The notes under the pieces were generated by a model. It worked only from the letters and a program-made list of their open reading frames with translations. It ran no database searches and was not told the DNA's origin. This document shows positions 10,482-37,455 of a DNA stretch of 64,000 nt, piece by piece. This DNA comes from Ruminiclostridium sp. Its GTDB lineage: Bacteria; Bacillota; Clostridia; Acetivibrionales; DSM-1351. The position numbers and the translations under genes were made by a program. The DNA lies in the NCBI GenBank assembly GCA_036507975.1, contig DATCID010000151.1:3120-67119 (forward strand), given 5' to 3'. The stretch's first letter is position 1; every line of letters starts with the position of its first letter.

Positions 10482-10570
10482 AACAACCTCCATGAACCAC
10501 AATAGCGGTCACATAATGTAATGAAACAGCCACACTTCATACGCTACAAGGCGAATAAAGGAGGTTATTT
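10482..10570 (-). repeat. SD-carrying dispersed element, copy A (full length)
   Basis: Sense: AATAACCTCCTTTATTCGCCTTGTAGCG...GTGACCGCTATTGTGGTTCATGGAGGTTGTT, then the Arc gene ATG. Confidence 0.8.
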
Positions 10571-10589
10571 AGCCATGCGCGCCTTTTCC

Positions 10590-11459
10590 TTAATTGTGTA
10601 GAGTTCCTGTATTAATAATTGGCTGCGTGCTTCTTTCTCCACATAAAACAACAAGTAAATTGCTTACCATAGCAGCTTTTCTTTCTTCATCAAGCTCTAC
10701 GATTTTATTTTCACTTAACATTTTTAATGCCATTTGAACCATTCCTACTGCACCTTCAACGATCTTTTGTCTAGCTGCAATTATTGCTGATGCCTGCTGC
10801 CTTTGAAGCATAGCCGCTGCTATCTCAGGAGCATATGCCAAATGCGAAATCCTTGCTTCCTCGACAATAACACCTGCCTTGCCCAGTCTCTGCTGCAGCT
10901 CATTTTTTAGAGCCTCTGACACTTCATCTGAGCTGCCTCTTAAAGACAAAGCATCTGAATCCTCTGAAACATCGTATGGATACATACCGGCTAAATGCCT
11001 AAGAGCTGACTCGCTCTGCACATTGACATAATCAATATAATTGTCAACATCAAAAAATGCCTCAGCTGTGTTTTCAACCTTCCATACAATTACAGCAGCA
11101 ATTTCTATCGGGTTACCCATTTCATCATTAACTTTTATCTTTTCACCATTAATATTCCTGGATCTAAGTGATATTTTTTTCTTTGTGTAAAAAGGATTTG
11201 CCCAATGCCAGCCCTCTTTCTTTACTGTCCCTGAATACTTTCCAAATAAGACTAATACCATTGCCTGATTGGGTTGCATAGTAAAAAAGCCCGGTAGCAT
11301 GAAAATATATACCGTAAATAATAAGATACTTAAAATGATAAATACCCCAGTTCCATCAGCTATTGACTTTACAAATAAAGCAATACTAAGAATAAGAACT
11401 AAAAATGATAATATGAGCATTAGTCCACCTGATTTAGCTCGCCCTGAAATTTCTTTCAT
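10590..11459 (-). CDS. SPFH/Band 7 domain membrane protein
   Basis: Two N-terminal TMs; [37 protein letters not shown]. Confidence 0.9.
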
Positions 11460-11485
11460 AATGACCCCTCCATTTTTCGGAAAAT

Positions 11486-11532
11486 TATTAATATGATATC
11501 ATAATGATATCATATTAATAATAATTAGTCAA
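11486..11532 (-). promoter_or_regulatory. SigA promoter with a 35-bp palindromic operator (two ATGATATCAT half-sites)
   Basis: TATTAATATGATATCAT-A-ATGATATCATATTAATA overlaps the -10 of TTGACT-N17-TATCAT; probable target of the Arc protein. Confidence 0.6.
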
Positions 11533-11622
11533 TATCAAGCATTTATTCACTTAGGAATAACTAAATAATAACCTCCCATTTTTGAAGGAGCTATTTTCCG
11601 TTTCAAAATCGTATTTTATTAT

Positions 11623-12339
11623 CTAGTTATTCCTTAATATTTCTTTTAATATATCTACCTTGAGAATTTTTATAGTTTCTTTTTGGAACTCAATGATGCC
11701 ATTATCCCTCATAACTCCCATTTCTCTGGACATGGACGGTCTGGAAACATTTAGGAAGTCTGCCATCTCATTTCTATTCATCGGTAGTTTGAAGGTAGTG
11801 CTACCTGATTTCTCCATGTACTCAAGTAGAAGACAGGCAATTTTTGAGTTTATGCTCTTCATAGACAAATACTCCACCCTTCTATTAAGCATAATCGCCC
11901 TTGTAGATACCGTTTTAAGCAGATTTTTTATAAGTAGAGAATGAAAGCCGCATGCCTCCCTACTTTGATTTAATATCATATTGTTCTCAATAAAAATGGC
12001 TTTACATGGGGTTTGTGCTTGGACGTTTGCTGGCCACTCTTCCTTTCCAGAAAACGCTATTACTTCTCCAAATATATCACCAGGCCCGATTACAGCCATC
12101 ACTACTCTATTCCCTGCTGCATTTTCTTTACTGACAAGGGCATCCCCCTCCACAAGTATTCCTAGCCCATGATATCTGTATCCTTGCAATACAATGAAGT
12201 CGCCTTTCTCATAAGAATGCATCTTTGGATCAAAGCATTGCAGCATTGATTTTAATTGAAAAGTTTCAAATCCTTCAAACAGCTCACATTTTTCAAGTAT
12301 TTTCGAGACCACATCTATATAATTTTCTATATCTGCCAC
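11623..12339 (-). CDS. Crp/Fnr-family regulator (HcpR-like)
   Basis: cNMP-binding fold (GPGDIFGE) and C-terminal HTH (NRNEMADFLNVSRPSMSRE). Confidence 0.88.
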   Translation of the reverse strand: MADIENYIDVVSKILEKCELFEGFETFQLKSMLQCFDPKMHSYEKGDFIVLQGYRYHGLGILVEGDALVSKENAAGNRVVMAVIGPGDIFGEVIAFSGKEEWPANVQAQTPCKAIFIENNMILNQSREACGFHSLLIKNLLKTVSTRAIMLNRRVEYLSMKSINSKIACLLLEYMEKSGSTTFKLPMNRNEMADFLNVSRPSMSREMGVMRDNGIIEFQKETIKILKVDILKEILRNN

Positions 12340-12428
12340 AATTAGCCTCCTAATATATTTATCTTATAATCTAACTCTACCATTACCCCAGCTTCTATAA
12401 AAAACATCTATAAAAAACTTTTTATTTT

Positions 12429-12442
12429 GTATCCACCGATAC
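12429..12442. promoter_or_regulatory. Candidate Crp/HcpR-type operator
   Basis: GTATC-CACC-GATAC palindrome between the divergent Crp regulator and Fe-S gene. Confidence 0.45.
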
Positions 12443-35988: not shown

Positions 35989-36074
35989 ATTAACTTTATG
36001 TCTCAAAACATAAAATATAGCACCTCACTTCACAGATCAAAAGTGAAGTGATATGCTATATTTTGATTATATAT

Positions 36075-36608
36075 TTAAAACTCTATACCTTTGCGAGCTG
36101 AAATACCTTTGTCGAAGGGATGCTTAATTGCTTTTATTTCAGATACATAATCAGCAATCTGTATTAAACCTTTTTGTGCATCCCTACCTGTAATTACAAG
36201 CTCAACGTGTTTGGGTTTGCTCTTTATCAATTCAATAATATCAGCTTCCTCTAAAAAACCTATAGACATTACTCCCAATAGCTCATCGAGAATAATTAAG
36301 TCATACTTATCTTTCAAAACCTCATTTTTAATACTCTGAAATATATCATTAGCTTCTTTTGCTGCTTCAGTTAATTCATCTGGAGTCATATTCCATACAA
36401 ATTTCTTGCAACTAAAGCCTCTAGTAACGCTAAAAGCTGAGCCCAGCTTTTTTATAGTACAAAGCTCTCCAGTATCACTACTTTTCAAGAATTGCACCAA
36501 GAGAACCTTCAATCCACTGCCACAAGCTCTTATTCCAAGTCCTATGGCCGCAGTAGTTTTGCCCTTACCGTCTCCTGTATATATATGTACCAGTCCTGTC
36601 CTGTCCAT
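36075..36608 (-). CDS. cobO: Cob(I)yrinic acid a,c-diamide adenosyltransferase (CobO/BtuR family)
   Basis: YTGDGKGKTTAA, QFLK, LDE, TGR and HPF..G..AR.GIEF motifs. Confidence 0.9.
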   Translation of the reverse strand: MDRTGLVHIYTGDGKGKTTAAIGLGIRACGSGLKVLLVQFLKSSDTGELCTIKKLGSAFSVTRGFSCKKFVWNMTPDELTEAAKEANDIFQSIKNEVLKDKYDLIILDELLGVMSIGFLEEADIIELIKSKPKHVELVITGRDAQKGLIQIADYVSEIKAIKHPFDKGISARKGIEF

Positions 36609-36609
36609 T

Positions 36610-36645
36610 TTAACCTCCATTAGCCGCTAATTGTGGCTCCCACTG
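36610..36645 (-). repeat. SD-carrying dispersed element, copy E (degenerate 3' half)
   Basis: GTGGGAGCCACAATTAGCGGCTAATGGAGGTTAAA-ATG. Confidence 0.55.
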
Positions 36646-36666
36646 TATCTTAGAAATTTGTTTATA

Positions 36667-37350
36667 TTAGTGTGCCTTACACGGACACACCTTAATGCAA
36701 ATACCACATACCGACCCTCGTCCAATATGTTTAAACTTTTGGTTCATATACTCCGAGCAGGCCTTTGCATCAACTATATAATCACGTTCAGTTCCTATGC
36801 TCCATTGATTCCCAGTCAAAGCATATGCAGGGCATGAACTTACGCATTTATTACACGATGCACATTTGCTCTCAAGAACTGTATTTTCAATTGGGAGTTC
36901 AACATCAGTCAGTACAGTTCCCAGTCTTACTCTAGAACCAAATTCCTTATGAATAAATAATCCATTTTTGCCTATCCACCCCAATCCAGCTCTAGTTGCT
37001 CCAGTTTTGTGTGGAAATACTCCACTATATGGAATTGTGGCAGTTGGAATGCTTTGGGATGCAGCAACAGAATACGCCTTGTATCCATTTTGCTGGATAG
37101 AAAGTAGCGTTCTGAGGGAAATTTGGTCAATCAAGGTATTCACTGAACGATAATGATTAAAGTAGGTAAATGTTGGTTTGTCCTCAATCTCATCGATTAT
37201 TGCATCAGAGAGTCTTATCCCAAACGTTATTGCATATGGATAATTTTTAAGTGCATCCGGTAAAGAAGCTTGTACATTGGAGAATCCAACAAATGATGCA
37301 CCAAGTCCAAGAATTAATGTTTCAAACTCTTTATATAAATTATAAACCAC
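36667..37350 (-). CDS. QueG/reductive-dehalogenase-like 4Fe-4S protein
   Basis: HKTGATRAGLGWIGKNGL...GSRVRLGTVLTD; CASCNKCVSSCP; CGICIKVCP. Confidence 0.75.
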   Translation of the reverse strand: MVYNLYKEFETLILGLGASFVGFSNVQASLPDALKNYPYAITFGIRLSDAIIDEIEDKPTFTYFNHYRSVNTLIDQISLRTLLSIQQNGYKAYSVAASQSIPTATIPYSGVFPHKTGATRAGLGWIGKNGLFIHKEFGSRVRLGTVLTDVELPIENTVLESKCASCNKCVSSCPAYALTGNQWSIGTERDYIVDAKACSEYMNQKFKHIGRGSVCGICIKVCPCKAH

Positions 37351-37364
37351 AAAATCCTCCACAT

Positions 37365-37455
37365 AACAACCTTCAAGAGACGCTAATTACAGCAAAAAAA
37401 GCTAATAATAAAACCACCTTTCTTCATTGCTATAAGGCGAACAAAGGAGGTTGTT
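37365..37455 (-). repeat. SD-carrying dispersed element, copy F (3' half decayed)
   Basis: AACAACCTCCTTTGTTCGCCTTATAGCAATGAAG is nearly identical to copy D; ends GAAGGTTGTT. Confidence 0.78.

Follow-up and report, generated by a model that had tools for sequence, protein, structure and literature searches.

Six gene-start repeats in a Ruminiclostridium genome as probable remnants of a gene-less IS110 passenger that supplies Shine-Dalgarno sequences

In Pseudomonas putida, the gene-less module ssr9/MITEPpu9 of ISPpu9 has ends resembling those of an IS110 insertion sequence (IS) and has been seen singly, in tandem and immediately downstream of the transposase gene; PMC12288879 describes it as a proposed hitchhiker on the IS110 recombinase and reports ssr9/MITEPpu9 circles. 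Recombinases of the IS621/IS110 group (PMC11208160, PMC11208158; PDB 8wt6) combine DEDD and serine catalytic residues and work with a bridge RNA, for which both papers describe a layout of left target and left donor guides in IS621; in the main text of PMC11208160 none of the words 'non-autonomous', 'MITE', 'start codon' and 'ribosome' occurs. In Mycobacterium avium subsp. paratuberculosis, IS900, also of the IS110 family, is described in PMC8141618 at translation-initiation signals, with an antisense open reading frame (ORF) that depends on host signals. Hairpin repeats dispersed directly upstream of genes are described in PMC3184786 as Neisseria REP2/CREN, Borrelia IR-A/B and mycobacterial MIRU; REP2 and IR-A carry a ribosome-binding site (RBS) and an ATG, and that account leaves the mode of spread of REP2 open. 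Here we analysed 64,000 nucleotides (nt) of Ruminiclostridium sp. (the window; G000:C151:3120-67119, where G000 is the genome of the window), which hold six copies of a dispersed element that ends in a Shine-Dalgarno sequence (SD) before unrelated genes. Very probably, these copies are what erosion has left of a gene-less passenger that kept its SD end; its likely mobiliser, acting in trans, is an IS110 bridge recombinase whose predicted target is the four bases preceding start codons.

All six window copies scored with a profile for which 50 full units, all of other genomes, were the sole input (E values in Table 1). The preliminary description of the window had listed these copies, and the sequence bore out their coordinates and strands, the GGAGG at 5–10 nt before the start codon in five of them (measured spacings of 10, 5, 8, 8 and 5 nt), and the sixth copy with GAAGG plus a separate GGAGG, the former facing an out-of-frame ATG and the latter an in-frame GTG. 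The stem position said to vary between copies is the outermost pair of the SD with its complementary arm (anti-SD), which reads T-G, T-A and C-G in three copies. The size given then, ~85 nt, had to be revised, because 85 nt is only the 3' part of a unit that in relatives is complete at ~190 nt and comprises four hairpins (A, B, C1 and C2). The 5' half of this unit was present in 14 of 38 genomes of the genus, G000 not among them, and some unit match in 33 of the 38; among 111 genomes of the order that lie outside the genus, 2 gave a match. Full units also appeared in records of Ruminiclostridium cellobioparum and in Bacillota metagenome-assembled genomes, and intact units often stood head-to-tail. 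One full unit lay inside a prophage tail operon (L091/L337), a possible route of transfer. An exact-pattern search of viral contigs returned one prophage-borne copy only, the remaining 22 of 23 matches being chance, and metagenome pattern searches gave 0 matches and then 3, one of them real.

Across G000, an iterated profile found 69 copies, and a 3'-end profile gave 72 matches at E<=0.1 versus 0 in the reversed genome. At 71 of these 72 ends a start codon opening an ORF of at least 60 codons lies 4–13 nt after the GGAGG, and at the lone exception a second copy comes next; the background for such a start codon and ORF is 1828/5659 (32%) of all GGAGG and 9.8% of random positions. Checked for orientation and distance in this way, the fixed polarity relative to the gene that had been noticed in the window holds genome-wide. 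The 3' end is always retained in G000 while the 5' side fades at differing points; most copies have no anti-SD, and a better profile detects remnants of hairpin B. In the window, the anti-SD arm is absent from two of the six copies (23773 and 36610).

Strict polarity is one of the observations that make a classical MITE (miniature inverted-repeat transposable element) extremely unlikely, that is, the 85-nt segment alone with 8–10-bp terminal inverted repeats, a DDE transposase and a TA duplication. Such an element would account for the complementary 8-mers that bound the segment (paired in 98.8% of cells) and for the TA at both junctions, but presence and absence concern the 190-nt unit rather than its 85-nt part, and the site is also taken by subfamilies that lack the inner repeat. 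In the ~190-nt unit, the inverted repeats are internal and the ends unrelated to each other. The proposal of a MITE whose inverted ends are outward-facing SD sequences found no support: the mobile unit is ~190 nt, its ends correspond to those of an IS110 instead of being mutual inverted repeats, and the anti-SD arm is lacking in subfamilies II-IV, which have spread all the same. What did survive of that proposal is a dispersed mobile element supplying the RBS of unrelated genes, as a non-autonomous element.

Genes beside the copies belong to metabolism, transport, translation and sporulation, as judged from 106 downstream proteins from fetched loci of relatives (for 25 of which no family was assigned at E<=1e-12) and from 88 ORFs at 40 loci in G000; no transposase or reverse transcriptase was found among them. 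The downstream genes are functionally arbitrary and form no regulon. This speaks against the element being a conserved, riboswitch-like cis-regulatory RNA recruited to gate translation through an anti-SD/SD switch, a reading that we consider very unlikely. Folding predicts a paired SD in the three window copies folded, and local hairpins covary as an RNA would, with two-sided changes in 6/27 pairs. By contrast, the anti-SD/SD helix on which the switch would depend is nearly invariant (two-sided change in 0/8 pairs among 41 units). Beside copy 1, the hairpin-B remnant reads as a predicted three-codon ORF (Met-Ala-Lys-stop) after a purine-rich site, and its stop falls on the anti-SD, as a regulatory leader might be arranged; likewise, in G132:C10 the anti-SD, the 3' arm of C1 and the SD are altered together. 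But the anti-SD is missing from most G000 copies and from subfamilies II-IV, the SD partner predicted in copy 25297 differs from the anti-SD, and sites are not conserved between close genomes, presence and length varying between genomes 96–99% alike. Rfam gave no match for window copies, full units or IS ends, in agreement with the earlier impression that no known riboswitch was involved. The element thus behaves neither as a terminal-repeat MITE nor as a riboswitch. Sequestration of the SD, which folding predicts, may still have a secondary effect on translation, and one distant copy has a compensated change. G132, from another family of the order, carries compact ~160-nt units at L320:1434-1593 and L364:597-758, of which one precedes a terminator-like hairpin instead of a gene and the other has a three-way compensated change. 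HDV-like, hammerhead, twister and hairpin ribozymes, attC sites and group II intron domains were compared by eye with consensus features only, and none fitted.

Comparison of orthologous sites showed both mobility and erosion. The fetched loci contained 97 unit-to-unit junctions and 160 terminal ends, with ATATG next at 108 of the ends. Orthologous genes 96–99% alike differ by a whole unit (presence/absence pairs L045/L088, L059/L083, L058/L037 and L033/L224) or by the point at which the 5' side of the element joins the host; these junctions often lie at a few shared bases (microhomology), with the native SD lost. Four copies (L080, L401, L406 and L412) have an internal deletion with both ends kept, and because such copies exist, truncation needs no reverse transcriptase. 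A single start site, read in 30 of 35 genomes, was native-like in 14, scar-like in 9 and filled in 7. The seven filled cases represent at least four sequence types, which have in common the start hairpin, T-tract, terminal hairpin and SD; types II-IV have no anti-SD, and the copy in G012 keeps an intact native SD and spacer on the left of the element. Members of the family with internal ~55-nt tandem subunits, 140–530 nt in total, sit at this same start site in L541 (G014), L542 (G050) and L540 (G013). In the argG-argH gap, G017 and G001 carry ordinary sequence with a GAGGTG site and no element. As for target duplication, an 8-nt direct repeat has sharp boundaries, and it is absent where the native SD is kept (G012 and the G000 IS junctions).

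A candidate mobiliser came from an IS110 search prompted by the start-site habit of IS900. Two G000 contig ends carry the family-type 3' end on a longer collapsed repeat, and the same collapsed repeat forms in G006 a 1640-bp contig (L581, G006:C73) that encodes an IS110 recombinase. The left end of this IS110 is the reverse complement of a T-tract, hairpin and SD, and the start of the unit, likewise reverse-complemented, corresponds to its right end; the group lies antisense to host genes, 4 nt before start codons. L581 and L585 of G000 score above the NF033542 cut-off, and the catalytic residues D12, E62, D98, D101 and S299 (DEDD RuvC-like plus Tnp serine) are invariant in 8 aligned proteins. 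A second member, L604 (G053:C61), is 54% identical to L581, and its protein matches IS621 (PDB 8wt6) and ISCro4. Behind L604 lies a unit that is partly deleted, and the gene-less copies L041, L202, L412 and L413 carry exactly the left end of L604. G000 itself carries fragments of the same IS as G006 (86% identity), with five right-end junctions, four of them directly behind an SD-like site, and two left ends before start codons.

Guide-like segments were sought in nine full IS copies, namely L604, a copy on a Roseburia plasmid and seven that lie on viral contigs. L577 was left out of the count, as were L593, L600, L601 and L602, whose left end is not intact. With U-G pairs allowed, the left non-coding end contains one 7-mer that agrees with the flank CAT-NN-TN in 9/9 copies and another that agrees with the right end in 8/9, compared with permutation averages of 2.8 for guide and flank and 3.1 for guide and right end; these values overstate the contrast because the nine copies are related. 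In L604 the two guides read CATATTA and TAAGCTA, and type I units have the flank CATATTA in 130/175 and the right end CAAGCTA in 97/140. We infer that these two segments belong to a bridge RNA, one as its left target guide and the other as its left donor guide. Separately, in L581, L038 and L584 the target guide matches the passengers' own right end, and the copies abut passenger ends.

A number of observations weigh against assigning the family to this IS110 group. Mobilisation, circles and bridge RNA are all predicted from sequence, and the right target and right donor guides have only loose candidates. The core is not fixed, being TA at both junctions in most IS copies and AA at the left junction of L597. 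The window copies contain no recombinase gene and no recognisable guides; only the left-end side of the unit survives in them, the right-end side being gone from all six, and G000 remnants in general have lost the IS-matching right end. Exact TA-NN-start is found in only 28/72 of the G000 remnants and 5-nt spacing in 38/72. As assembled, the IS of G000 has no guide region, and at its right end it reads CACGCTA, unlike type I. Type I units and L604 have only their two ends in common, the origin of hairpins B and C1 being untraced. In 4/9 IS copies the adjoining ORF has only 4–20 codons, and several have no upstream SD; part of the SD association may therefore be selection rather than targeting. 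Finally, no close relative of L581 or L604 was found in the drafts of G044, G015, G017 and G046, four of the five unit-rich genomes queried (best 34% identity), an absence that collapsed repeats may explain.

The last point would also be expected if the end-matching IS110 were merely a relative and the mobiliser were something else: a reverse transcriptase, a Y1/HUH transposase, a small GIY-YIG nuclease or the IS110 lineage of L458. A fixed 3' end with variable microhomology junctions on the 5' side resembles retroposition, but the internal deletions with both ends kept account for truncation without reverse transcription, and neither reverse transcriptase (PF00078) nor Y1 transposase (PF01797) families track the unit-rich genomes, the element being present at 0/60 of their loci. 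In the Ssn (GIY-YIG)/SRM system as described in PMC11893778, a small GIY-YIG gene is flanked by the repeat, unlike here: the unit-rich clade has no small GIY-YIG genes, a scan of 30 loci gave one weak match (E 0.035, not a small gene), and the flanks of 8 small genes showed no flanking repeat. IS110s of the L458 type are present in 6 unit-rich genomes and in three genomes lie inside the element's SD; they share its target sites, but their ends are unrelated to the unit, and IS621 is described as doing no target-target recombination (PMC11208158). Taken together, these observations make another mobiliser very unlikely. The L458 lineage (L458/L484 in G006:C1, L488, L489, L485-L487) is a second IS110 group with a CT core, antisense insertion between SD and ATG, a readable bridge RNA and three copies inside the element's SD.

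If the IS110 group matching the unit's ends is the mobiliser, its recombinase and bridge RNA would act in trans and excise the passenger as a circle, which would be inserted antisense 4 nt before a start codon, between the host SD with its spacer and TA-NN-start. In gene-strand orientation, the unit would then come after the host SD and its spacer, and its far end would give GGAGG at the right distance; arrays would grow because this end rebuilds a perfect target. Deletions would strip most of the insert, often together with the native SD, and selection would keep only the SD end, leaving 30–90-nt cassettes. Copy 6 fits this model since its gene retains a GGAGG of its own (before the in-frame GTG at 37362) and the element, whose SD has decayed, faces an ATG that is out of frame. 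To judge only by resemblance, the anti-SD probably derives from the ribosome-binding hairpin of the transposase, which is on the opposite strand: when the IS strand is read, it forms a strong SD within a hairpin that precedes an ATG, much as at the start of the transposase. A preprint (10.64898/2026.08.31.748434) describes copy-out circles and half-match insertion for IS621, which by analogy could add to the one-sided junctions. A broader scheme, which we put forward only tentatively and hold to be doubtful, is an ecosystem of bridge-RNA guides and gene-less passengers that rewrites translation-initiation regions genome-wide. IS110 variants would target different TA-NN-ATG sites; L581 would land on passengers, as its target guide reads their own end; the native RBS would be replaced in tens of genes per genome, essential ones included; and the anti-SD with the three-codon ORF would form a translational-coupling switch.

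The family compares most closely with ssr9/MITEPpu9, with which it shares the absence of a transposase, both ends of a cognate IS110, occurrence alone, in tandem and beside the IS, and the existence of empty sites. It differs in having dozens of copies per genome, several subfamilies, translation-start sites as its location and an SD to supply, and in being known from its sequence alone, whereas ssr9/MITEPpu9 is described with 8 copies, repetitive extragenic palindromic targets and an AG core (PMC12288879). The partner resembles IS621 in its DEDD and serine recombinase and in a long left non-coding end with segments like the left target and left donor guides, but its junction is TA, not CT. 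IS900 shares the IS110 family and the start-site habit; it is autonomous, and the account in PMC8141618 describes no SD-donating passenger family. With REP2, IR-A and MIRU the likeness drawn here is by description. The window family, unlike REP2, has a candidate recombinase and guides, and, unlike the described MIRU ORFs (PMC3184786), the ORF starting at the TTG of the unit is not conserved across it (102/108 stop early). By analogy, then, the passenger would be an IS110 hitchhiker of the ssr9/MITEPpu9 type with the start-site habit of IS900 and an RBS cargo as in REP2. Our literature search found no direct paper on the passenger family or on SD-targeted passengers; ISfinder and supplements, which may list such a MITE, were outside the search.

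With this assignment, a bacterial repeat that is present in high copy and falls into no described family would be linked, guide base by guide base, to one particular RNA-guided recombinase, a link that REP2-like start-site repeats still lack in the account of PMC3184786. It would show by what means essential genes and operon junctions can be invaded by a selfish element, which pays for its landing at the start codon with an RBS, and how after erosion the host comes to rely on mobile DNA. It also would provide natural sets of guides, targets and donors for a bridge recombinase with a non-CT junction in cellulolytic clostridia, and a route to asking if RBS replacement alters expression. For motif searches it is a caution, as such cassettes mimic cis-regulatory RNAs.

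Coordinates of the copies and of other features are collected in Table 1. Of the names given to the downstream genes in the preliminary description, NCBIfam returned RuvC and ArgH above cut-off and cob(I)alamin adenosyltransferase just below it; QueG was far below, and the queH and Arc-like proteins had no match.

Table 1. Copies of the element, their targets and other repeats or genes in and near the window. Positions are those of the window unless a contig is named; E, score of the copy with the profile from other genomes.
Feature	Position	Strand	Description	E
Copy 1	10485..10567	-	3' part of unit: anti-SD, hairpin C1, T-tract, hairpin C2, GGAGG	2.8e-21
Copy 1 target	ATG 10476		10 nt past GGAGG; small gene, Arc-like in the preliminary description	
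Hairpin B remnant (3' arm)	10568..10585	-	beside copy 1; read from the sequence	
Copy 2	21482..21575	-	fills gap from ruvB stop to next gene; anti-SD partly decayed	3.7e-11
Copy 2 target	ATG 21480		queH in the preliminary description	
Copy 3	23773..23816	-	reduced to T-tract, hairpin C2 and GGAGG; ruvC GTG 8 nt further on	3e-5
Copy 4	25298..25379	+	between argG terminator-like hairpin and argH (ATG 25385)	3.1e-17
Copy 5	36606..36638	-	reduced to hairpin C2 and GGAGG; ATG of adenosyltransferase (36608) 5 nt further on; weakest copy	0.037
Copy 6	37365..37460	-	SD decayed to GAAGG before out-of-frame ATG	1.8e-7
IS110 3' part and right end	G000:C151:1-361		2.8 kb before the window; cut by contig start; junction without SD	
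Second repeat family	14173-14310	+	~135 nt	
Third repeat family	26886-27004	+	~120 nt	
Third repeat family	17819-17891	-		
Third repeat family	38483-38562	-		
tRNA genes (two)	15542-15701	-		

Two further repeat families are present in the window. The second is hairpin-rich with GATAAA-like words at its borders and has 21 near-full copies in G000, 8 of them at least 97% identical, which points to recent activity. The third is tandem-prone, shows internal deletions, has 25 near-full copies in G000 and has one hairpin in common with the second. By eye, group II intron-like ends were recognised on a collapsed repeat that breaks about 22 contig ends per side in G000 (C104 and C113 among them), and two more such repeats occur there in fewer cases. 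Between an oxidoreductase subunit gene and the next gene (L513-L526), a non-coding motif of ~70 nt is kept in 14/14 genomes compared; it had no Rfam match at the gathering score in L513 and is a candidate cis-regulatory RNA.

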